From NCBI RefSeq assembly GCF_000027125.1, contig NC_017626.1: a stretch of 64,000 nucleotides of DNA; one strand, 5' to 3'. Position 1 is the first letter of the stretch; each line of letters starts with the position of its first letter. Origin of the DNA: Escherichia coli 042. Its GTDB lineage: Bacteria > Pseudomonadota > Gammaproteobacteria > Enterobacterales > Enterobacteriaceae. Made by a program: the position numbers and the translations under genes. The notes under the pieces are model-generated. The model made no database searches and was not told the origin of the DNA. It saw only the letters and a list, made by a program, of their open reading frames with translations. Below, in pieces: positions 789 to 63,937 of the stretch.

Positions 789-3700
789 TTAAGCCAGATG
801 CAGTGCTTCAAGACGACGAAGATCAAAGTCGTTTAATTCGTCGGTATAACTTTCGGTAATCGGTGCTGGCCAGTTGTTTGTCTCCAGGGCTTCGTTTATC
901 TGGCGTAGCGTCCGGCGATATTCCTGTCGACCAAGTTCCAGGAGTTCCTGCGAGGCTTCCACGACAGCCACCCAGTGATAGCCAGCATCTTTGTTGACGA
1001 AGATCCAGAAAAATTTTTCCAGGTTTGCCACATCGCAATACATTGCGGCGCTGAGGTGATAATCACGCTCAATAATTTCACGGTGCAGGCGATCTTTAAG
1101 TCGTTCCTGCCGCACATAACCGAGGCTGACTGACTTCACGTCGGCGCAAATGCTTTCGTATGGCAGCCGGATTTCGATATCAGGACGGACCCTGATTTCC
1201 AGCCCGGTTTCTTCATCAAACCCGAAATAGCTGATTTCAGATTTGCGATCCGGGTGGTTGAGTAGCCTTGCCGCATCAGTATTGTTTTGCAGTGCCGCGT
1301 GAATATTTTTTGCCTGTTCATACATATCCGGACTGATAAACGTTTTCCCGGCGTTTTCTTCTTGCTGGCGTTTTTGCCAGTCCTCCAGTGTCACCAGTTC
1401 CGGGCGAATTTTCCGTGCGATTTCGGTTAATTGCTCTTTCGTGCCACTGATGTTGTAAGGCAAAGATTTAGCACGTTCTTTTTTTGCCAGTTCTGGGTCT
1501 ACAGTTTCAATTTGATCCAGAAGTTGCTCCCGTGCTCCACTGGTTTTCAACAGAGGAGGGAGGCTTGCGTTGTATTCTTTAATACAGGCTTTCATTGCTG
1601 ATGCTGTGTGTTTTTCCCCCTCAGGGATACGCCGAAATTCCACCGGAAGCGAACCGTAAAGGATGCCTGTTTCTTCGGCCCCAGCACTTACAGACAGTGG
1701 CTGTATAAGAGTGCTGTTGTAGCTTTCGATCCACTCTTTCATCTGCTCTGGTGTCATCAGTGCTGGCAGACTGGCATTGTGTTTTTTAATGATGGCGATC
1801 AGTTCGTTAGAAGTAGTAACCACATATTCAGGAACCGGTACCGGAATGGCATATTCATCAGCGAATTTATCCGTTTCCAGAACATAGCTGTGAATGATCC
1901 TCCCACGCAGCAGTGCATCACTTTCCTCATTCGGAATAGTTCCGGCAATGTGCCGCCCGTGGTAATACATCAGGCTGATACGGGCATCCTTCAGCATCGT
2001 GCTGCTTATTCCGTTGGCGGAGTGATAAACCTCGTTCGGGAGGTTTTCATAGCGGCCTGGCTCGAAATATGACGGCCACATGATTTCAGTTGCTACAGGA
2101 GCTGACGCTTCACCAGTTTGATCACTGCAATCACGATGCGGATCGCTGCCAGCATTCTCATTGTGCGGATGTTCAGCGCCTTCCATTTCCACCGGATCTT
2201 TTTCCTTAGCTTCAACCTGATTCTCTTCATCGAATGTTTCCTGGTATGTTGCGTCGCCCATCACCGCGCCACAGTCAGGGCAGTTACTGCCGCCGGTCTG
2301 ACCGCAGGCGGCGCAGACTTTTTCCGGTTCCTGTTGCGCTTCTGGTTCATTTTGTCGCGAATTTTGGCCGTTTTGTTCCGATTTTCGGTCGTTCTGTTCC
2401 GTTTTTGGCTGATGCTGGTACACAGAATCGCGGGTCTGGATCCCCTTAACCCATTTCGGATCATTCGGGTCGCTAATCCCTTCAACAAATTCTCCGCGAT
2501 AGGCAGCCAGTAATTTGTCTGCATCAACAGAATTTACCTGTGACTGAGCATCCAGCGGCTGCGTGTCCTGATGATGTTCAGTTGCATCCGGTTCCACTGT
2601 TTCAGCCGTTGCCTGTTCATCTGCCATTGCGCCAGATGGTTGCGGTTTTTCTTCATCATTCTGTTTTCCCTCCTCTGTTACACGCTGCGGCATCGGGGCA
2701 GAGGAGCGACCGCAGGCAATATCCACGATTTCCGGATCAGGGTTGGCATGATCGGTTTCAGTCAGTACTTTGTTCAGATATTCTGTGACGTGCGCGGGGA
2801 TGACCTCGATCCCAATTGGTGCTTCTTTCACGGACGCAACCACGATGGCGCGAGAATAATCCAGCCCGCCAGGCATGGTGATGAATTTGTCGCGGAAAAC
2901 AGAAAAGGGCGGTTTATTTTCAGCGATAATTTCCTCAATGCGTTTAGCGTGTGCCGGATGAAGGTTATAGATGTCCACGTCCATTGAACGGGCCAGTACG
3001 CCAGTGGCTACGTCGCGCGCCAGTGACGTAAGATCGTGGACGAAACCTTCGCCGCGATCGGTGAGGTTCCCGCCGCCAGCATTAGCACCGGAAGCCGTGC
3101 GAGTGATGCGTGAAACACGATTACCCTTCATCCACTCTTTTGTCAGCAGTCCTCGATCGGTGTAGTCAGCGTTCAGGTATACTTCGAAAAAAGCAGTTAA
3201 CAGTCCCAAGTCTGAATTACCAGGATTAGGGAAAACTTTGTCAGTGTCACGAACCAGTTTGTGGAGATCGCGAATTTCCAGCGGGTCGAGCAGGCTGGTT
3301 TTGTGGGAAACAGCCAGGGCAGTAACAGCCGGTAGTTCTTCAGCCCGTGCAATGTGTAATGCCTGGAGTTCGCCGCGTGAAACGTGCGTTACCGGTTTTT
3401 CGCTGCCGTGTTGAGCAAGCCAACGAATGGGCAGTTCCTGGCCAGAAATTGGGAGTAGCATATTCTCCTCAATCTCAGTCATGTCTTCGCCGTTGACGTT
3501 GGTATTGCCTTGATAGTGAGCGTTGTCTGGTGCTGCTCCCGGTTTTAGTTCCCATGTCATGGAGTCTTTGCTGAGTTGATAGCGTTCACTCCAGGTAAAA
3601 TCGATCTCACCTTCAGCGGGCAGGTCATTAACGACAGGAAAATTCGTGGCAACAGCTTTAAAATAGCTGCTCAGTTTTTTACCTGACTTAACGATCTGGT

Positions 3701-3812
3701 AGTCCAGAGTGGCACAGGTCGATTCAAAATCGTCACTTGCCCACAGGACGACGTCAGGTTCACCGGATGATTTTTTCGCTTTCCGTAACAGGAAGAGTGG
3801 TTTTGTGCTCAT
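789..3812 (-). CDS. recE: Exonuclease VIII (RecE-like), 1007 aa
   Basis: Long ORF; C-terminal region has RecE-type nuclease-domain character (e.g. [10 protein letters not shown]) as I recall it; synteny with racC/ydaE/kilR. Longer than K-12 RecE (866 aa). Confidence 0.8.
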
Positions 3813-44323: not shown

Positions 44324-45181
44324 CTAATTGGGTGATGACAAATCCTGTGTATGGGTGTTTCCCTTTGTGCGTGCGTTGATGCTGGTAACGGTGAACGTCA
44401 TGATGAACACAACCGCGAATAAGACGACAATCGTCGGAGCTGGTGCACTGTCGATAAAAAAGGACAACCAGACACCAGTCATTGACACTATTACCGATAT
44501 GCCAATCGCCAGTAGGAGCGCAATATGAAAGCGTTGTGTCAGGAGTACCGCAATGGCGCCAGGCGCAATGAGCAGAGAAATGGAGAGAATGATACCTACC
44601 GCTTTCAGCGTCGCCACAATGGTCAGAGAGACCATGCACAGCAGCCCATAATGCAGACATCTCGTATGCAAACCGCTTACCTGCGCCTGTTGATAATCAA
44701 AGCTGAACAGCAAAAAATCCCGCCATTTTACGCTAATAACAAGTGTAACCAACCCGGCAATAATCACCGTCTGGATTATATCGCCGATGGTTACCCCGAG
44801 CATGTCGCCGAAAAGAATATGGTCAAGATGTACGTCTGGTTTGACTGCAATATACAAGATCAGACCTGCGGCAAACATGCCAGAAAAAACAATCCCCATC
44901 ACTGTATCTTGCTTGATTCGGCTGTTGTCTTTCAGGTATCCCGTCGCCACCGCGCAGAATACTCCGGCGACGAATGCCCCTGTAGCCAGAGGTAACCCCA
45001 GAATCCAGGCAAGCACGATGCCAGGAAAAACCGCATGACTCATCGCGTCACCCATCAGTGCCCAACCTTTCAGGACCAGAAAGACCGACAGCAGCGCACA
45101 GGGTATGGAAACTACCAGTGAAATCAGCAGTGCGTGACTCATAAAGGTGAACTGCAGTGGCTCCAGTAATAATGCCATCAT
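44324..45181 (-). CDS. sitD: Mn/Fe ABC transporter permease SitD
   Basis: Polytopic permease; operon order sitABCD. Confidence 0.9.
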   Translation of the reverse strand: MMALLLEPLQFTFMSHALLISLVVSIPCALLSVFLVLKGWALMGDAMSHAVFPGIVLAWILGLPLATGAFVAGVFCAVATGYLKDNSRIKQDTVMGIVFSGMFAAGLILYIAVKPDVHLDHILFGDMLGVTIGDIIQTVIIAGLVTLVISVKWRDFLLFSFDYQQAQVSGLHTRCLHYGLLCMVSLTIVATLKAVGIILSISLLIAPGAIAVLLTQRFHIALLLAIGISVIVSMTGVWLSFFIDSAPAPTIVVLFAVVFIMTFTVTSINARTKGNTHTQDLSSPN

Positions 45182-46035
45182 GAGCGATCCTCCAGCGCTT
45201 TATGCGCACGCCGACGATTTGCCAAAAGCCCATGGGTGGGCGCAAATACAAATGCTAAAAGAAACAGCAGTGTCTGCGCCACCACGATGATTCCACCTGT
45301 CGCGCCGTCCAGAAAGTAACTGACCCACGCGCCGAGGAAACTGGTTACACTGCCAATAGTTACAGCAATTATGAGCAGGCGGGGAAAATGATCGGTTAAC
45401 AACCATGCTGTTGCACCGGGAGTCACCACCAGACAGATCACCAGAAAGGCACCAACCGTTTGCAGCGCCGCAACGGTCGAAACCGACAGCAGGGTGAAGA
45501 AGAGGATTTTTAATCTGCCCGGATGCAATCCAATAGCACGAGCGTGATTCTCGTCGAAAAAGGTCACCATAAGATCTTTCCATTTGAAAAAAAGCACGAT
45601 GATCGAGAGAATGCCAATGATAGTGAGTTGCAGGATATCCGCCGGATCGATTGCCAGAATATTGCCCAGGACGATGGTCTGAATGTTCACGGATGTCGGG
45701 TTCAATGACACCATAAACAGCCCCAGGCCAAAAAAGGAGGAGAAGATCAGGCCGATGATGGCATCTTCTTTTAAGCGAGTGCGTTGGTTAAGAAACAGCA
45801 TGCTGCCCGCTGCCAGTCCGCCGGAAAAGAAGGCTCCCAGAGAAAACGGAAGCCCCAGCATATATGCCCCCGCAACACCCGGGACAATAGAGTGCGACAG
45901 CGCATCGCCAATCAGCGACCAGCCTTTTAGCATCAGATAGCATGACAGGAAAGCGCAGAGACCGCCGACCATCGCCGAGACCCACATCGCATTGAGCATA
46001 TATTCATAGCTGAAGGGTTCCAGTAGCACGTTCAT
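45178..46035 (-). CDS. sitC: Mn/Fe ABC transporter permease SitC
   Basis: Polytopic permease paralogous to SitD. Confidence 0.9.
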
Positions 46036-46859
46036 CTTGCTTCCCCCTGCACCGCTGACGGTCGATGTGCCACAAAAGGGTGTTCATCGTCAGTAATAAT
46101 GCTTTCTTCCGAGCCGTTAAGTGTGACATGGCGCAGTACGCCGCTAAAAGCCAGCTCCAGGTTCTCGGCTGTAAAAGTGGTGTCTGTCGGCCCGCTTGCC
46201 AGGACGGTGCCTTTGACCATGACCGTATAATCGCAAAATGTCGTGACTGAGCCGAGATTGTGCGTTGAGACAAGCATCGTCTTGCCTTCCGCGCGTAACT
46301 CCCTCAACAGGCTGATGATTTTCGCTTCGGTTTTCACATCAACGCCGGTAAAAGGTTCATCCAGCAGGATCACATCACCCTGCTGTGCAATCGCTCTCGC
46401 CAGAAAGACGCGTTTCTTTTGTCCACCGGAAAGCTCGCCGATTTGTCGATGGCGAAAATCCACCATATCGACACGTTCCAGCGCATCGGTGACAATCTGA
46501 CGATCCCTCTTTTTGGCTATACGCAACATACCCATGTGCCCATAGCGGCCCATCATCACCACATCTTCCACTAGTACAGGAAATGACCAGTCAACCTCTT
46601 CTGACTGAGGGACGTAGGCAACCAGGTTTTTCTGTAGCGCCTGTCGCGTGGGAATACCCAGAACAGATATCTTTCCGCTGGTCAGACGGACAAATCCCAT
46701 AATCGCTTTAAACAACGTCGATTTTCCGGAACCGTTTACCCCAACCAGAGCGGCAATAGATCCACTTGGTACTGTGAAGGATGCATCGCGCAGTGCTGTG
46801 TGCCCGTTACGCCAGGTGACAGTAACATCATTAACGACAATGCCCGCAGATTGCATCAT
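46032..46859 (-). CDS. sitB: Mn/Fe ABC transporter ATP-binding protein SitB
   Basis: Walker [13 protein letters not shown] signature LSGGQKKR, Walker B ILLDEP. Confidence 0.9.
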
Positions 46860-47773
46860 TATTTCTCCCTTTTCCCGGCTTTAATTCCCTGTACCAGCGT
46901 ACTGGTAGTAACCTTCAGAAGGTCGATATACGTAGGTACCGGGCCGTTTTCTGTGCTCAGGGAATCGACATAGAGTACACCGCCGTAGTGCGCGCCGGTT
47001 TCACGCGCAACCTGACGCGCTGGTTTATCGGAAATCGTACTCTCGCTAAAGACTGCCGGGATATGATTTTTCTTCACCATATCAACAACCTTACGTACCT
47101 GCTGCGGCGTGCCTTGTTGATCGGCATTAATCGGCCACAGATAAAGCTCTTTTAGCCCCAAATCGCGTGCGAGATAAGAAAAAGCCCCTTCACTGGTGAC
47201 CATCCATCGCTGATTCTCAGGGAGTTCAGCAATCTGCTTACGCAGGGGGGCAAGGGTTTGGGTAATCTTGGCTTTATAAGTATCGGCATTACGTTGGTAG
47301 GTTTGTGCATTTGCCGGATCGTATTTTATCAACGCATCACGAATATTATCGACATAAATCAGAGCATTATCTGGCGACATCCAGGCATGGGGGTTAGGTT
47401 TGCCCTCATAGGGTCCTTCGGTGATCCCTACTGGCGTCACACCCGAAGAGACAATTACTTCTGGAACCCCATTGAGATGTTGGTAAAAGCGTTGGAACCA
47501 CAATTCCAGATTCATACCATTGGCGAGAATCAGTTGTGCCCCCTGCGCACGTTTAATATCTCCAGGGGTAGGCTGATACTCATGAATTTCTGCACCAGGC
47601 TTGGTTATGGATGAGACTTCTGCAGCATCTCCAGCCACGTTTTTGGCCATATCCGCGATGATGGTAAATGTTGTAATGACCTTGAATTTTTCAGTTGCAC
47701 TTGCCTGAAATGCGATCGAGCAGGTGAGGGCGAGGCACCCCAAGAGCATGGTTACTTTTTTTATTGAGTGCAT
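46859..47773 (-). CDS. sitA: Periplasmic metal-binding protein SitA
   Basis: Signal peptide; cluster-9 substrate-binding protein family. Confidence 0.9.
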
Positions 47774-47866: not shown

Positions 47867-48325
47867 GCGGTTGTGGGCCCAACACAGGGATTAGGTTGTT
47901 TCCTGCTGGCGATGTGGTATTGAGGAAAAAATTAGGGCAGCTATTAGGCTTTGAAATGACTTTATGAGGAGAATTGTTGATGGCAAAAATGGGGCAAAGC
48001 GCTGCAAAAGGGGCAAAAAAGGGGCAAAAAAAGAGTGGGTTATCGTAGCTTATTGTTGTCGCTGATGATGTTTAACACATTGAAAAATAAGTAAAATACT
48101 TATGAGTCAGAGAGTTGTGATTTTTGCCCTTACTTGTTCAGATTGTATTGTTCTTTCTTACTAATTTCTTGATTTTGCGACATTTAAAAGCGACTCAATT
48201 CGTTATATGGCATCAGAAGAGTATGCGTCATGCCGGAAAGCCCAGCATAAGAAATCTGATATAAAAACTGTGGCGTGTATGGTACGGATTAGAGGGGAAA
48301 ATGTCAGCACATTTGCGAAATGAAT

Positions 48326-56223: not shown

Positions 56224-58863
56224 ATGCTGGGTAAATATAAAGCCGTTCTCGCGCTGTTATTACTGATTATTCTTGTGCCGTTGACGCTGCTGATGACGCT
56301 CGGCTTGTGGGTTCCCACGCTGGCGGGCATCTGGCTACCGCTCGGGACACGTATTGCATTAGATGAAAGCCCACGCATTACGCGTAAAGGTTTAATCATT
56401 CCCGATCTCCGTTATCTGGTGGGAGATTGTCAGCTTGCGCATATCACCAACGCCAGCCTTTCACATCCCAGCCGCTGGTTATTGAACGTCGGCACGGTAG
56501 AATTTGATTCTGCTTGTCTGGCGAAATTGCCGCAGACGGAGCAATCGCCAGCTGCTCCAAAAACCCTCGCGCAGTGGCAGTCCATGCTGCCTAACACCTG
56601 GATCAATATCGATAAACTGATTTTTTCTCCCTGGCAGGAATGGCAGGGAAAACTCTCTCTCGCATTAACCTCTGATATTCAGCAACTGCGTTATCAGGGC
56701 GAAAAAGTTAAATTTCAAGGCCAGCTGAAAGGGCAACAACTTACAGTCAGCGAACTGGATGTCGTCGCGTTTGAAAATCAGCCGCCGGTTAAACTGGTGG
56801 GGGAATTTACTATGCCGCTCGTGCCGGATGGACTTCCTGTAAGTGGGCATGCTACTGCGACGTTAAACTTGCCGCAGGAACCGTCACTGGTGGATGCAGA
56901 GCTGGACTGGCAGGAAAATAGCGGGCAATTGATTGTGCTGGCACGGGATAACGGCGATCCGTTGCTCGATTTGCCGTGGCAAATTACTCGTCAACAATTG
57001 ACCCTAAGCGATGGTCGCTGGAGCTGGCCGTATGCAGGTTTTCCTTTGAGTGGCCGACTGGGTGTCAAAGTCGACAACTGGCAGGCAGGGCTCGAGAACG
57101 CTCTGGTCAGCGGACGACTTAGTGTGCTGACCCAGGGGCAAGCGGGTAAAGGCAACGCGGTGCTAAATTTTGGCCCAGGAAAATTAAGCATGGATAACAG
57201 CCAGCTGCCTATGCAACTGACCGGTGAAGCGAAACAGGCGGACCTCATTTTATATGCCCGTTTACCTGCGCAGCTAAGTGGAAGTCTGACTGACCCAACG
57301 CTGGCCTTTGAGCCAGGCGCGTTATTACGTTCGAAGGGAAGAGTCATCGATTCGCTGGACATCGATGAAATCCGCTGGCCTTTAGCGGGTGTAAAAGTCA
57401 CCCAACGTGGTGTTGACGGACGTTTGCAGGCCATTTTGCAGGCGCATGAAAATGAACTGGGCGATTTCGTGCTGCATATGGATGGGCTGGCGAATGATTT
57501 TCTCCCTGACGCTGGCCGCTGGCAGTGGCGCTACTGGGGAAAAGGCAGTTTTACACCGATGAATGCCACCTGGGATGTTGCAGGAAAAGGTGAGTGGCAT
57601 GACAGCACGATTACGCTGACCGATCTCTCCACCGGTTTCGACCAGTTACAATACGGTACGATGACGGTAGAAAAGCCGCGATTAATTCTCGACAAGCCCG
57701 TCGTCTGGGTACGTGACGCACAGCATCCCTCCTTTAGCGGCGCGCTGTCACTGGACGCCGGGCAAACGCTGTTCACTGGCGGCAGTGTGTTACCGCCATC
57801 AACCTTAAAATTTAGCGTCGATGGACGCGATCCGACGTATTTCCTATATAAAGGCGATTTACATGCTGGTGAGATTGGCCCGGTTCGGGTAAATGGTCGC
57901 TGGGACGGTATTCGTCTGCGCGGTAACGCCTGGTGGCCTAAACAATCACTGACCGTATTCCAGCCGCTGGTGCCACCCGACTGGAAGATGAACTTACGCG
58001 ATGGCGAACTGTATGCTCAGGTCGCATTTTCTGCTGCGCCTGAACAAGGATTCCGCGCGGGAGGGCACGGTGTGTTGAAAGGCGGTAGTGCCTGGATGCC
58101 AGATAATCAGGTTAACGGTGTCGATTTTGTCCTGCCTTTCCGTTTTGCCGATGGAGCCTGGCATCTGGGGACTCGCGGCCCCGTTACGTTGCGAATTGCC
58201 GAAGTGATTAATCTGGTGACAGCGAAAAATATTACGGCTGATTTGCAAGGGCGCTATCCGTGGACAGAAGAAGAACCATTGTTGTTGACTGATGTTAGCG
58301 TCGATGTGTTAGGCGGTAACGTGCTGATGAAACAATTACGTATGCCGCAACATGACCCGGCGCTGTTGCGGCTGAATAATCTCTCATCCAGCGAACTGGT
58401 TAGCGCCGTCAATCCGAAACAATTCGCCATGTCCGGGGCATTTAGTGGTGCATTGCCGTTATGGCTAAACAACGAAAAATGGATAGTGAAAGATGGTTGG
58501 CTGGCAAATAGCGGGCCAATGACCTTGCGGCTGGATAAAGACACCGCAGATGCGGTGGTAAAAGACAATATGACTGCGGGTTCAGCAATTAACTGGTTGC
58601 GCTATATGGAAATTAGCCGTTCATCGACAAAAATTAATTTAGATAATCTCGGTTTATTAACCATGCAGGCCAACATTACAGGTACCAGTCGCGTTGATGG
58701 TAAAAGCGGTACGGTAAACCTTAATTACCATCACGAAGAGAATATTTTTACGCTGTGGCGCAGTTTACGCTTTGGCGATAATCTCCAGGCATGGTTGGAG
58801 CAGAACGCGCGTCTGCCGGGAAATGACTGTCCGCAAGGAAAAGAGTGTGAGGAAAAACAATGA
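56224..58863 (+). CDS. ydbH: AsmA-family protein YdbH (879 aa)
   Basis: Size, N-terminal TM, synteny with ynbE/ydbL. Confidence 0.85.
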   Translation: MLGKYKAVLALLLLIILVPLTLLMTLGLWVPTLAGIWLPLGTRIALDESPRITRKGLIIPDLRYLVGDCQLAHITNASLSHPSRWLLNVGTVEFDSACLAKLPQTEQSPAAPKTLAQWQSMLPNTWINIDKLIFSPWQEWQGKLSLALTSDIQQLRYQGEKVKFQGQLKGQQLTVSELDVVAFENQPPVKLVGEFTMPLVPDGLPVSGHATATLNLPQEPSLVDAELDWQENSGQLIVLARDNGDPLLDLPWQITRQQLTLSDGRWSWPYAGFPLSGRLGVKVDNWQAGLENALVSGRLSVLTQGQAGKGNAVLNFGPGKLSMDNSQLPMQLTGEAKQADLILYARLPAQLSGSLTDPTLAFEPGALLRSKGRVIDSLDIDEIRWPLAGVKVTQRGVDGRLQAILQAHENELGDFVLHMDGLANDFLPDAGRWQWRYWGKGSFTPMNATWDVAGKGEWHDSTITLTDLSTGFDQLQYGTMTVEKPRLILDKPVVWVRDAQHPSFSGALSLDAGQTLFTGGSVLPPSTLKFSVDGRDPTYFLYKGDLHAGEIGPVRVNGRWDGIRLRGNAWWPKQSLTVFQPLVPPDWKMNLRDGELYAQVAFSAAPEQGFRAGGHGVLKGGSAWMPDNQVNGVDFVLPFRFADGAWHLGTRGPVTLRIAEVINLVTAKNITADLQGRYPWTEEEPLLLTDVSVDVLGGNVLMKQLRMPQHDPALLRLNNLSSSELVSAVNPKQFAMSGAFSGALPLWLNNEKWIVKDGWLANSGPMTLRLDKDTADAVVKDNMTAGSAINWLRYMEISRSSTKINLDNLGLLTMQANITGTSRVDGKSGTVNLNYHHEENIFTLWRSLRFGDNLQAWLEQNARLPGNDCPQGKECEEKQ

Positions 58864-59045
58864 AAATTTTACTGGCTGCGTTGACGTCATCTTTTATGCT
58901 GGTTGGCTGTACGCCTCGCATTGAAGTCGCTGCACCTAAGGAACCGATCACTATCAATATGAACGTTAAAATTGAGCATGAGATCATCATCAAGGCAGAC
59001 AAAGATGTCGAAGAGCTGCTTGAGACTCGTAGCGATCTTTTCTGA
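58860..59045 (+). CDS. ynbE: Lipoprotein YnbE (61 aa)
   Basis: Lipobox LVGC; overlaps ydbH stop. Confidence 0.8.
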   Translation: MKILLAALTSSFMLVGCTPRIEVAAPKEPITINMNVKIEHEIIIKADKDVEELLETRSDLF

Positions 59046-59049
59046 GGCG

Positions 59050-59379
59050 ATGATGAAGAAAACATTACTTCTTTGTGCGTTTCTTGTTGGGCTGGTAAGC
59101 AGCAATGTAATGGCATTGACTCTGGATGAAGCCAGAACTCAGGGGCGGGTAGGGGAAACATTTTATGGTTATCTGGTTGCGCTGAAAACAGATGCTGAAA
59201 CAGAGAAATTAGTAAACGACATTAATGCCGAACGTAAAGCGAGTTACCAACAACTGGCAAAGCAAAATAATGTCTCGGTAGATGATATCGCGAAACTCGC
59301 CGGGCAAAAGCTCGTAGCTCGGGCTAAACCGGGGGAATATGTACAAGGGATAAACGGTAAATGGGTGCGAAAATTTTAA
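59050..59379 (+). CDS. ydbL: Periplasmic protein YdbL
   Basis: Signal peptide; third gene of ydbH-ynbE-ydbL. Confidence 0.8.
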   Translation: MMKKTLLLCAFLVGLVSSNVMALTLDEARTQGRVGETFYGYLVALKTDAETEKLVNDINAERKASYQQLAKQNNVSVDDIAKLAGQKLVARAKPGEYVQGINGKWVRKF

Positions 59380-59513
59380 TAGCAAAACCGCAATATCGGG
59401 ATAACGCTACAGGAGAAGGCGATTATTCTATTTTCCGGAAACAAGGTGAATATTCAAAAATTCCTGTCAAATTGCCTTTCGCCCTGAAAAATGCATAGTC
59501 AAATATCTGTTTT

Positions 59514-59552
59514 AACTAATTCGCGTTGCTGTACATGCAACGCGAATTAGTT
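59514..59552. terminator. 39-bp palindrome (bidirectional terminator-like)
   Basis: aactaattcgcgttgc-tgtacat-gcaacgcgaattagtt. Confidence 0.45.
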
Positions 59553-59784
59553 AGCGGAATTTACGTCGATACTCGCCTGGCGTCATCCCAAAGCGTTGAT
59601 TAAATACCGTTGAAAAATGACTCTGGTCGGAAAATCCCCAATGAAAGCCAATGCCTGCCAGTTTTTCATCATCTGCGGCATGGCGAATCGCATCTGCACA
59701 AAAATCGAGACGACGGTTACGGATATATTGCGCGACTACCAAACCTTTATCGGCAAACTTTATCAGCGCGTAGCGCCTGCTGCT
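59551..59784 (-). pseudogene. feaR: feaR 3' remnant (AraC-family C-terminal HTH only)
   Basis: Frame encodes ...GFHWGFSDQSHFSTVFNQRFGMTPGEYRRKFR; stop at 59785-59787 truncates it to about 77 codons. Confidence 0.6.
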
Positions 59785-59787
59785 TTA

Positions 59788-59910
59788 GCGTTCGTTAGTG
59801 AAAAAGGTGAAACCTCGGTCGGTGAACTGCCTGCGCCGGGAAGCCTGTATTTTCAACGTTTTGGCGGCTTGAATATTGAACAGGACGCGTTATGCCAATT
59901 TATCAGATAG
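59788..59910 (+). pseudogene. paaX: Probable paaX 3' remnant
   Basis: Open frame running into and overlapping the paaY start; identity inferred from synteny only. Confidence 0.35.
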
Positions 59911-60482
59911 ACGGTCTGACTCCGGTTGTGCCAGAAGAGAGTTTTGTTCATCCGACAGCGGTATTGATCGGCGATGTTATTCTCGGCAAGGGTGTTTACG
60001 TTGGGCCAAATGCCAGCCTGCGTGGCGATTTTGGTCGTATCGTGGTGAAAGATGGCGCGAACATTCAGGATAATTGCGTTATGCACGGTTTTCCCGAGCA
60101 GGATACTGTCGTGGAAGAAGATGGACATATTGGTCATAGCGCTATCCTTCACGGCTGCATTATCCGCCGCAATGCATTAGTGGGAATGAACGCGGTAGTG
60201 ATAGACGGTGCGGTGATTGGCGAGAACAGCATTGTTGGCGCATCCGCATTTGTGAAAGCCAAAGCAGAAATGCCAGCTAATTACCTGATTGTCGGCAGCC
60301 CGGCGAAAGCGATTCGTGAACTCAGTGAGCAGGAGTTGGCATGGAAAAAGCAGGGTGCGCATGAGTACCAGGTGCTGGTGACACGCTGTAAGCAGACGTT
60401 ACATCAAGTCGAGCCATTGCGGGAAGTTGAACCTGGCAGGCAGCGCCTGGTATTTGATGAGAATCTGCGACCGAAACAGTAA
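59892..60482 (+). CDS. paaY: Hexapeptide-repeat thioesterase PaaY (196 aa)
   Basis: Left-handed beta-helix hexapeptide repeats; size. Confidence 0.85.
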
Positions 60483-60525
60483 CGTCCTGATGCTGGACGT
60501 TCTAATTTTTAGCATGTGATACACA

Positions 60526-60558
60526 AACCGCAACGCTGATACAGGTTGCGGTTTTTTA
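60526..60558 (+). terminator. paaY intrinsic terminator
   Basis: accgcaac-loop-gttgcggt followed by T6. Confidence 0.6.
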
Positions 60559-60712
60559 TTGCCGGATGCGGTACTTGACGCGTTTTGTTTTGGTGTCTTT
60601 CAGGGCAATAGAGCAACTCATCCAGTAATCTTGTTTACGCCTTCGCATTATTTATCTCTTTTCGTTTCTATACTGATTTTTCTTAATCCGTTTTATTACA
60701 GGGCAGGGTGCG

Positions 60713-61573
60713 ATGAGCAACAACACATTTACTCTCGGTACAAAATCCGTTAACCGTCTTGGTTATGGCGCGATGCAACTGGCAGGCCCTGGGGTTTTTG
60801 GCCCCCCAAGAGATCGCCACGTTGCTATAACCGTGCTGCGTGAGGCGCTGGCATTGGGTGTCAATCACATTGATACCAGCGACTTTTATGGTCCGCACGT
60901 CACCAATCAGATTATCCGCGAAGCGCTTTATCCTTACTCTGACGATCTGACAATTGTCACTAAAATTGGTGCGCGGCGTGGAGAGGACGCATCCTGGTTG
61001 CCCGCATTTTCTCCGGCAGAGCTGCAAAAAGCGGTACACGATAATCTACGTAATCTCGGCCTGGACGTACTGGATGTGGTTAACCTGCGCGTCATGATGG
61101 GGGATGGTCATGGCCCGGCGGAAGGATCGATTGAAGCCAGCCTGACCGTGCTGGCAGAGATGCAACAACAAGGCCTGGTAAAACATATTGGCCTGAGCAA
61201 CGTCACACCGACGCAGGTCGCAGAGGCGCGTAAGATTACCGAAATCGTCTGTGTGCAGAACGAATACAACATTGCTCATCGTGCTGATGACGCAATGATT
61301 GATGATTTGGCCCGCGATGGCATTGCTTACGTGCCGTTCTTCCCGCTTGGGGGCTTTACGCCGCTGCAATCCTCCACACTTTCGGATGTAGCAGCGAGCC
61401 TGGGCGCAACACCAATGCAGGTGGCGCTGGCGTGGCTGTTACAGCGTTCACCGAATATTTTGCTGATCCCAGGGACGTCTTCTGTTGCGCATTTACGGGA
61501 GAATATGGCTGCTGAAAAATTGCATCTTTCTGAGGAAGTGTTGTCTACGTTGGATGGTATTTCGCGAGAATAA
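60713..61573 (+). CDS. ydbC: Aldo-keto reductase YdbC (286 aa)
   Basis: AKR-family sequence; size. Confidence 0.85.
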   Translation: MSNNTFTLGTKSVNRLGYGAMQLAGPGVFGPPRDRHVAITVLREALALGVNHIDTSDFYGPHVTNQIIREALYPYSDDLTIVTKIGARRGEDASWLPAFSPAELQKAVHDNLRNLGLDVLDVVNLRVMMGDGHGPAEGSIEASLTVLAEMQQQGLVKHIGLSNVTPTQVAEARKITEIVCVQNEYNIAHRADDAMIDDLARDGIAYVPFFPLGGFTPLQSSTLSDVAASLGATPMQVALAWLLQRSPNILLIPGTSSVAHLRENMAAEKLHLSEEVLSTLDGISRE

Positions 61574-61630
61574 CGAATATACAAAAGGGAAAGATGCATT
61601 TCCCTTTTGTTTCTTTTTTAATGGCATGGA

Positions 61631-63937
61631 GTGCATATGTTTAAGCCCAGGATTTGCAGCTGGATAGGTTTACTTCCCCTGTTTATGCTGAGTCTTCCAG
61701 TACAGGCGGAACTTCGATGTGTTGCAAATGCAGTTGATATTGAACCATTTTTTTCTGCGGCTACCGCTGAAGATAAACAACAAGTTGAACAAGCTATCAA
61801 CAGTAGCGTGAATCTTGTCCCCTTCGGTTTATCTGCATCGGACTGGAAAGTGCATCGTGGCGATTTAGTGGTTGACGGTAATATAGAGAGTAATCAAAAA
61901 TTGATTGTTCTTGGCAATTTGACAGTCAAAGGTAATATTTCCACTTTCTCTCTTTCTAATCCATGGATTATTCTCGGTAACGTGACGGCAACGAATATAG
62001 TTACGGATTCACCACTGTTAATTACCGGTTCGATAAATGCAAGTGGACTGGTATTTATCGACTCATATTACGATAATCCGTCTACGATTAAGGGGAGTAT
62101 TAATGCGCGTGGGATATTTATCAATGACATAATTGCACCTGTTGTTGTGTCTTCGACAAATAGTGAATTCATGGTCCGTGCGGGAGACAAAAATGACACT
62201 GAAAATGTCAAAAAAGCGCTGACGATAATAAATCCTGATGCATATTATTGGGGCCTAATAAATGATGAAGATGCTCTGAAAGAAATTTTTAAGCGAAGCA
62301 ATATTCGCATAGCAGGGAATGTCTGTAATCAGATGAAAAAAGAAGCGCTGTTTCGCCCTAAGCCTTCACCTGAATTAGTGCAGGAATTGCAAATGCTGGA
62401 TGAAGGCAAAGTTGCTGCATTTGAAGGGCGAGACATTGCGACATTTGATCTTGCCATAATGCGAACTCTCCCAAGGCTTAAAGGAATTTCAGCTAACCTA
62501 CGCAAACAACTTATTAATAGCAATGATGAACAAACGATTGAAAGTATGGCGAGATATATGCCTGACAATGAGATTCTGGAGTTGACCGATCAGCAATTGG
62601 GTTACCAGCCTGTGGTTCTGGGGTTGCTCAACCGTGAACCGCTCTCTGTCGAAATAATGACGCGAATTAGCCATCTACCTGATGGTGCCGGTCCGTTGAA
62701 TCTTGCGCTACGTGAAAATCTCCCTCTGGATATCGTCATGACTCTGGCGAAAAGAGATTGGGTCATTGAGGGGCTTTATAAAGATGCATGGTTATTGCCC
62801 GAATCCATTATAGATGGCTATATCCGCAGTGATGATCCCACAATTCGTCAGGTCGGTGCTGGAGGACAACTCACCTACAATCAGGCAATGCAGTTGGCGA
62901 AAGATTCATCAAAAAATGTTGTCACAAACTTAGCGTTCAAGCTGGCAGAGATGAAACACCATGGTCAATTGTTGCGGATGACACCACAAGAGAGTGACAA
63001 AATAGCAGTATATTTATACCAAAAATTCGAGAATGACGATGATCTAATAGGTACGTTATTTTTAGCGTTGCCAGATAACTTACAGTTTAATTTTGTTAAA
63101 AGGATGGAGAAAAAATCCCCTGCCTACTTTTGCTGTCGGGATATGCAGATAATTCACTCTGACGCTGCTTTACAACGGTTATTGACACGTTTCAACGATC
63201 CTGAGGGGTGGAGTAATTTGGCGAAAAATCAGTATCTGAGCACGTCGATGAAACAAAAAATTTGGCAACGTGCTTTATCGCATCGGAAAAATAATCCGAA
63301 AGCAGATTCTGCAGCATATGAAACCAGCGCTGATATGATTTTGTCTGAGCTGATTAGCCACGGTGAAGTTGATGACCAGATGCTATTAAATGCCACCTCT
63401 CTGATACGTTCGGAAGGCTGGGACTTTTTAGAGAGTGCATTAGTTAGTTGGGATAATTTACCCGCTGTTGTCCTCAAGGAATTACAGCAAAATATGCCAC
63501 GCAATGATATTTGGGCGAAGTTTTTTCTGAGGCAGGAAAACAGCTCTCGTGCGCAGGTTAACGAAGCGTTACGTGTTTATTATGCACTTGACCCCGATGC
63601 ATTAGCACAACTGGATAAACTGGCAAAACAACCGGATCGTATATGGTGGAGTACACTGGCGAAAAGCAATCTCACATTTTTCAAGTTCGGCGCACTTAAC
63701 AACCACCACACACCGCCTGCAGTACTGGCGGCAGAAATTGATCCCGAGTGGTGGATTGTGGCGATGAATAATCCCCGTTTTCCAGTTGATATATTAAAGG
63801 CGAGGCTGAAACGTGATCCTTTGCTGGCGTTAGAGCTTGTTAACCCTGAACTGGATTTAGTTCGGCAGCTGGCGCTTAACGGTAAGACGCGCGCAATACG
63901 GGAACAAGCGATGAGAAAACTTGATGAGTTGTATTGA
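61631..63937 (+). CDS. ydbD: Protein YdbD (768 aa)
   Basis: Signal peptide; size and synteny after ydbC. Confidence 0.8.
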   Translation: MHMFKPRICSWIGLLPLFMLSLPVQAELRCVANAVDIEPFFSAATAEDKQQVEQAINSSVNLVPFGLSASDWKVHRGDLVVDGNIESNQKLIVLGNLTVKGNISTFSLSNPWIILGNVTATNIVTDSPLLITGSINASGLVFIDSYYDNPSTIKGSINARGIFINDIIAPVVVSSTNSEFMVRAGDKNDTENVKKALTIINPDAYYWGLINDEDALKEIFKRSNIRIAGNVCNQMKKEALFRPKPSPELVQELQMLDEGKVAAFEGRDIATFDLAIMRTLPRLKGISANLRKQLINSNDEQTIESMARYMPDNEILELTDQQLGYQPVVLGLLNREPLSVEIMTRISHLPDGAGPLNLALRENLPLDIVMTLAKRDWVIEGLYKDAWLLPESIIDGYIRSDDPTIRQVGAGGQLTYNQAMQLAKDSSKNVVTNLAFKLAEMKHHGQLLRMTPQESDKIAVYLYQKFENDDDLIGTLFLALPDNLQFNFVKRMEKKSPAYFCCRDMQIIHSDAALQRLLTRFNDPEGWSNLAKNQYLSTSMKQKIWQRALSHRKNNPKADSAAYETSADMILSELISHGEVDDQMLLNATSLIRSEGWDFLESALVSWDNLPAVVLKELQQNMPRNDIWAKFFLRQENSSRAQVNEALRVYYALDPDALAQLDKLAKQPDRIWWSTLAKSNLTFFKFGALNNHHTPPAVLAAEIDPEWWIVAMNNPRFPVDILKARLKRDPLLALELVNPELDLVRQLALNGKTRAIREQAMRKLDELY

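Follow-up and report, generated by a model that had tools for sequence, protein, structure and literature searches.

A deletion scar between feaR and paaX in Escherichia coli 042 in place of the phenylethylamine and phenylacetate genes

The window, i.e., the whole stretch of 64,000 nucleotides from Escherichia coli 042 that was analysed, contains the local gene order ydbH-ynbE-ydbL, a short frame on the minus strand, a short frame on the plus strand that runs into paaY, a spacer of 230 bp, and pdxI(ydbC)-ydbD. On its left, the scar is preceded by ydbL (59053..59379, plus strand), the last core gene that is intact; it is collinear with K-12 and has the same name in the annotation of NZ_AP022298.1, whose locus is identical. 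On the right, pdxI, also called ydbC (60713..61573, plus strand; NF007695, 557 bits), is the first gene that is intact. A stretch of 1.5 kb is identical in NZ_AP022298.1, where NCBI annotates a partial helix-turn-helix gene and a partial paaX (both “missing N-terminus”), an intact paaY, and pdxI. The search for structured RNAs in Rfam over 58800-61700 gave no match at E ≤ 0.1.

Between the convergent ydbL and feaR, the sequence reads as a perfect inverted repeat of 16 bp (59514..59552; arms 59514-59529 and 59537-59552, loop of 7 nt), which overlaps the feaR stop and lies within the ungapped alignment to K-12. This repeat is native and was not made by the deletion. It is conserved in K-12, and a T-run is absent on either strand.

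The frame on the minus strand is the 3' remnant of feaR (59551..59758): the stop and 68 codons, approximately residues 234-301 of the 301-aa FeaR, i.e., a pseudogene fragment. Its translation (59554-59757) is identical to the C-terminus of K-12 FeaR in 67 of 68 amino acids, with one substitution. Against the NCBIfam profile of FeaR (NF007243) it covers positions 236-303 of 303 and scores 121 bits at a cutoff of 199; the score is below the cutoff because only a fragment is present, the 68 C-terminal amino acids of about 301, and the remnant cannot be counted as FeaR. The original prediction, made from the letters of the window, recognized the C-terminal end of feaR on the minus strand; its length of about 77 codons was 9 codons too many.

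The frame on the plus strand ends in the 3' remnant of paaX (59759..59910), which consists of 2 nt, 49 codons (59761-59907), and the stop (59908-59910); the deletion has taken the promoter and 84% of the gene. The prediction noted this short frame running into paaY and listed paaX among the lost genes; since the frame contains the last 49 codons of paaX, the gene is not wholly gone. The tail is identical to the C-terminus of K-12 PaaX in 48 of 49 amino acids and matches TIGR02277 at positions 244-278 of 279 with 22.8 bits (cutoff 264.6); with 49 amino acids left, it is not the full-length repressor of about 316 aa. The overlap of 19 nt between paaX and paaY is kept as in K-12. In matching genomes NCBI labels both remnants as partial pseudogenes, the one of feaR being described as “incomplete; missing N-terminus”. 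The list of open reading frames also includes a chimeric frame of 97 codons (59617..59910, plus strand), in which the antisense of the feaR remnant is fused in frame to the paaX tail. Its family match is limited to the C-terminal 40 aa, which are PaaX, and no expression signals were found for it, there being no promoter-like site upstream. We therefore rejected it as a new gene and consider it a by-product of the junction, as only its PaaX-derived tail matches any family.

The gene paaY (59892..60482, plus strand) is intact from ATG to TAA and encodes 196 aa, as had been predicted; it matches TIGR02287 over profile positions 1-192 of 192 with 372.3 bits against a cutoff of 319.6. Its genomic context, i.e., the co-transcription with paaX from Px and the adjoining paa catabolic operon, is missing: Px, the 5' end of paaX, and paaZ/paaA-K are deleted upstream of paaY. 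A passage in PMC4640556 cites the paaXY operon, in which the two genes are normally transcribed together. In the interval from ydbL to paaY (59380-59892), no sigma-70-like site was found on the plus strand. We infer that paaY is probably transcribed weakly or not at all.

The alignment of the window (59200-61000) to MG1655 (1443000-1478000) gave three collinear blocks. The left arm, MG1655 1446027-1446588, corresponds to 59200-59761 (97.0% identity) and ends inside feaR; the right arm, MG1655 1464338-1465062, corresponds to 59759-60483 (98.3% identity) and starts inside paaX; the third block, MG1655 1474005-1474508, corresponds to 60497-61000 (96.4% identity). The deletion junction (59758..59759) reads GGCAAAC followed by TTTATCAG, with the break between 59758 and 59759, and MG1655 approximately 1446589-1464340 (17,752 bp) is missing. 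The lost DNA comprises the 5' 77% of feaR, feaB, tynA, paaZ, paaABCDEFGHIJK, and the 5' 84% of paaX. Thus, the predicted deletion scar from the 5' part of feaR through feaB, tynA, paaZ, and paaA-K to the 5' part of paaX is borne out by the alignment to K-12, by the family matches of the two truncated gene ends, and by the annotation of partial pseudogenes in NCBI. The junction had been placed at about 59785, approximately 25 nt away from its position in the alignment. The proposed alignment to K-12 did define the breakpoints (a gap of about 17,752 bp) and the microhomology, which amounts to 0-2 bp in register.

The deleted 17.75-kb segment of K-12 has no blastn match anywhere within the 64-kb window, and the functional catabolon for phenylacetate and phenylethylamine (feaB, tynA, paaZ, paaABCDEFGHIJK) is not present there. 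Complete feaR and paaX frames elsewhere in the interval, which would have contradicted the prediction, do not exist: both genes are truncated. The absence of the catabolon refers to the 64-kb window, while the carriers of the scar were sampled for the ends of feaR and paaX; each such record has these ends in one place, with no second copy of either in the sampled carriers. Considering that the remnants can be completed to FeaR and PaaX only with the K-12 DNA restored, the difference is a deletion here and not an insertion in K-12.

Turning to the breakpoints, K-12 continues at the feaR side as ATTCGG, the paaX side in K-12 is preceded by ATCAACA, and the two share only TT in register. The hexamer AACATT occurs on both K-12 sides. 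At the feaR side it is found in K-12, FMU073332, and Iso00225, and at the paaX side also in AST240, so that the T at 59759 derives from paaX. Pairing at AACATT would give AAACATTTATC; the window is without that A. The local alignment of the two K-12 breakpoints (±150 bp) scored 12 against 11.4 ± 1.8 for shuffles, i.e., no better than chance, and neither longer homology nor inverted repeats beyond chance were found at them. No IS element or IS end was found at the junction (59700-59820 inspected), which speaks against an IS-mediated deletion. The two truncated genes abut directly: a mobile element and a long direct repeat are both absent, and a few base pairs at most are shared. These are the features of an illegitimate deletion, and the event was one, at the level of microhomology.

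To the right of paaY there is a second, unrelated junction (60483..60496), at which 13 bp (60484-60496) replace 8,942 bp of K-12. According to the alignment, the absent segment, K-12 1465063-1474004, contains ynbG and ydbA with IS2 and IS30; in K-12, ydbA is a pseudogene broken by these two elements. The region to the right (60497..60712, plus strand) aligns to MG1655 1474005-1474220 and includes the last 9 nt of ydbA and the upstream region of pdxI. The spacer between paaY and pdxI (60483-60712) has the predicted length of 230 bp. The direct junction of paaY to pdxI is fully covered in 2,037 of 5,426 genomes with an identity of 90.6-100%, and it also occurs in genomes with intact paa genes, e.g., in AST240 (intact paaJ-paaK-paaX-paaY). 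The prediction was right in that ydbA is absent; its loss does not belong to the same event. Among the carriers of the scar, 258 of 259 are without ydbA. Considering this proportion and the existence of paa-intact genomes without ydbA, the fea-paa deletion most likely arose on a background already lacking ydbA.

The 13 bp, which are unique to ydbA-less genomes, contain TGATGCTG, and the same 8-mer recurs within the final 33 nt of ydbA in K-12, O157:H7, and ABU 83972, where it lies 11 nt further from the stop. This suggests, rather faintly, that the ydbA-less state may itself have arisen by deletion, with about 30 nt of the ydbA 3' end retained. A hairpin with a 7-bp stem followed by a T-run (60481-60510) stands directly after the paaY stop and is terminator-like; at 60484-60501 the hairpin and the T-run are formed by the 13 bp, the paaY stop, and the retained tail of ydbA. 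The ydbA-less allele thus seems to have created a terminator-like structure just 3' of paaY. Another stem-loop terminator, read from the sequence, lies downstream of the ydbA tail at about 60525-60560 (stem AAACCGCAAC/GTTGCGGTTT, then a T-run).

The frequency of the scar was estimated in 5,426 complete E. coli genomes. Of these, 259 match the 201-bp probe of the junction over its full length; the 48-bp probe, neither half of which matches alone, is found in 258 genomes, once in each and always in the chromosome. The scar is thus present in approximately 4.8% of the complete genomes, and its carriers were obtained from humans, poultry, pigs, dogs, wild birds, and water. Ten carriers were compared: the strain named ST648, C4, an O169:H41 strain, GMF054, 2016C-3878, ETEC1738, the E2348/69 derivative, 2017.09.02CC, GPEC1035, and E20. 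The junction is base-identical in 10 of 10 of these diverged carriers, and their ydbH, pdxI, and ydbD differ from those of the window by 1-5%. The identity of the junction together with this divergence of the flanks indicates an old event, which is not specific to the strain and has become widespread. ST648 is placed in phylogroup F and E2348/69 in phylogroup B2; for the carriers, the phylogroups are assumed from the strain names. In the carrier ETEC1738 (record L014, from 2068 onward), a tnpA of the IS200/IS605 family is found immediately 3' of paaY, within the spacer that in other genomes is occupied by ydbA or is empty.

The genes paaABC are present in 3,125 of the 5,426 genomes, i.e., 42% are without them, and at least two other independent deletions are observed at the locus. 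One allele, feaR'/'paaY, is found in 564 of the 5,426 genomes (e.g., Iso00225 and SK1144) and is clonal; MG1655 1446629 is joined to 1464721 with an overlap of 4 bp. Similar to the window, it has a 3' stub of feaR adjoining ydbL and has lost the whole catabolon; it differs in its breakpoints, in the truncation of paaY, and in that a full-length autotransporter of the ydbA type is kept. In Iso00225 (record L003, 4252-4830), the feaR stub of 252 nt is fused to the 3' 329 nt of paaY. In Iso00225 and throughout this allele, the full-length 8.6-kb autotransporter of the ydbA type follows the paaY remnant; in the Iso00225 record it is named “EntS/YbdA MFS transporter”, which looks like a misnaming. 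The other deletion, in FMU073332 (record L004, 6252-7945), is bounded by IS1, extends from feaR to ynbD, and removes fea-paa, paaY, ydbA, pdxI, ydbD, and ynbA-C; an IS1 is at its break, while the junction in the window has no IS. ABU 83972 and O157:H7 resemble the window in having no phenylacetate genes between ydbL and pdxI; unlike the window, they have no remnants of feaR, paaX, or paaY, and an autotransporter of the ydbA type is present. The state of these two genomes cannot be called a scar, whereas that of the window can.

The variability of this locus is documented. Goldstone et al. (2016) described the paa locus, which they placed between ydbH-ynbE-ydbL and ynbC/ynbD, as a region of genomic heterogeneity, in which they reported deletions of independent origin (tynA-paaZABCDE, and a fusion of paaA to paaK) and a carriage of ydbA that varies (PMC4951805); Leimbach et al. 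(2017) reported paa to be missing in their genomes of phylogroups B2 and E (PMC5422975). The locus is the same, with the core ydbH-ynbE-ydbL on one side; the breakpoints published there differ from those of the window. In E. coli B, phenylacetate catabolism was lost at the same locus through an IS3-mediated event (Archer et al., 2011; PMC3032704), whereas the window has no IS and microhomology only. No paper giving the exact feaR'/'paaX junction was found in the literature. The scar represents gene loss of the ordinary kind: the allele has been annotated before, and the variability of the locus is on record.

We presume, with a probability of approximately 0.93, that the scar results from a single old deletion in a fea-paa background without ydbA, which was later inherited and spread. 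The ancestor would have possessed the fea-paa cluster and already lacked ydbA. One old deletion by illegitimate recombination would then have removed about 17.75 kb, from feaR codon 233 to paaX codon 267, and with it the genes for the conversion of phenylethylamine to phenylacetate (the activator feaR, feaB, and tynA), paaZ and paaA-K, and the repressor gene paaX with its promoter. What remains are two dead gene ends and a promoterless paaY, presumably functionless in this context. The allele would have been subsequently inherited into many E. coli lineages and was probably also moved by homologous recombination of its flanks. A single origin is the economical reading of the data, and we infer it as such.

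Other explanations were considered. An error of assembly or sequencing can be dismissed since the same junction is present in 258 independently assembled complete chromosomes. A combined event that took everything from feaR to ydbA would be suggested by the two differences from K-12 lying within 750 bp of each other; however, the two junctions are separated by the intact paaY and by 152 nt of paaX, and the paaY-pdxI junction is eight times commoner than the fea-paa one and is shared by the paa-intact AST240. We consider the combined event refuted by this frequency and by the paa-intact carriers, and its chance is negligible. A hotspot, e.g., slipped mispairing at AACATT, could also have produced the deletion more than once, in different lineages but always at these two nucleotides. 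The occurrence of AACATT on both sides in K-12, the very diverged backgrounds of the carriers, and the other junctions found at this deletion-prone locus agree with such a proposal; nevertheless, the observed AAAC joined to TTTATC is not the product of recombination at AACATT, all the 11 sequences examined share the same odd junction without one A, and the breakpoints of the other deletions found here are not the same. Recurrence with at most 2 bp of in-register microhomology seems unlikely, and we give this proposal very little credence. A further proposal, which we find rather improbable, starts from the base-identical scar in backgrounds as distant as the strain named ST648 and the E2348/69 derivative and in isolates from humans, poultry, dogs, and wild birds: one ancient loss allele may have been spread between lineages by homologous recombination and kept since the loss of the catabolism, or of FeaR and PaaX, helps in some host-associated niches; if so, the at least three independent deletions at the locus would represent convergent adaptive gene loss.

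The question of paaY is related. It may be proposed that paaY was retained for a role independent of paa (e.g., as a housekeeping acyl-CoA thioesterase) and that selection shaped the boundary to spare it. The gene is complete in the window, and of the 10 other carriers sampled 9 have it intact; it is full length in the best 60 carrier matches listed, and its pairwise pN/pS among carriers is 0-0.3 on small counts, with synonymous divergence of up to 0.16. However, the low pN/pS may be inherited from paa-intact ancestors or donors. In the scar carrier EPEC1 derived from E2348/69 (LT903847.1; record L015, 1255-1875), both the start and the stop codons of paaY are lost (AAG and TCA, respectively), and the gene has 10 synonymous and 10 non-synonymous private substitutions. 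Moreover, the allele common to 564 genomes halves paaY, the gene is wholly absent from ABU 83972 and O157:H7, and no promoter-like site precedes it here. Selection keeping paaY is therefore unsupported: the counts behind pN/pS are tiny, one lineage of carriers has neither start nor stop, and other alleles destroy the gene. We find this proposal improbable and conclude that, in the single old deletion, paaY is a bystander that lies outside the breakpoint by chance. In LT903847.1 NCBI calls a paaY of 204 aa from a downstream start.

As to the consequences of the deletion, the FeaR-activated conversion of 2-phenylethylamine to phenylacetate (tynA, feaB), all the enzymes for the ring opening of phenylacetyl-CoA and for beta-oxidation, and the repressor PaaX would be lost. 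From the gene content, growth on phenylacetate and phenylethylamine is probably lost; the strain of the window and about 5% of the sequenced E. coli would then be unable to use 2-phenylethylamine or phenylacetate. The scar also accounts for the two short pseudogenes and the orphan paaY that genome annotations show, and the 48-bp junction sequence can be used as a marker of the lineage or the allele. For a locus that has repeatedly lost these genes, one more allele is thereby precisely mapped; beyond such bookkeeping, the scar has little importance.

Some observations concern the rest of the window. Positions 1-43700 are mostly a lambdoid, Rac-like prophage, with a recE-type exonuclease VIII on the minus strand (789-3812) and with head and tail genes (19-43.7 kb) that are 96-97% identical to those of Salmonella phage SPF_0923 and several E. 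coli vB_EcoS phages. This prophage is missing from BEC1-S17-ESBL-09, a strain that is otherwise identical; collinearity with this strain over the whole window was rejected, as it holds from 48134 onward only, and the prophage is specific to the window in this pair. Between the prophage tail genes and a fragment of ttcA, a four-gene Mn/Fe ABC transporter on the minus strand (44324-47773; binding protein, ATPase, and two permeases) resembles sitABCD and looks like prophage cargo. Synteny with the prophage-free genome restarts at 48134-48190 within ttcA, in its first 17 codons (MSQNQEISKKEQYNLNK, followed by a stop), and this segment is an attR-type duplicate of the 5' end of ttcA. The integration site in ttcA is the one used by Rac in K-12.
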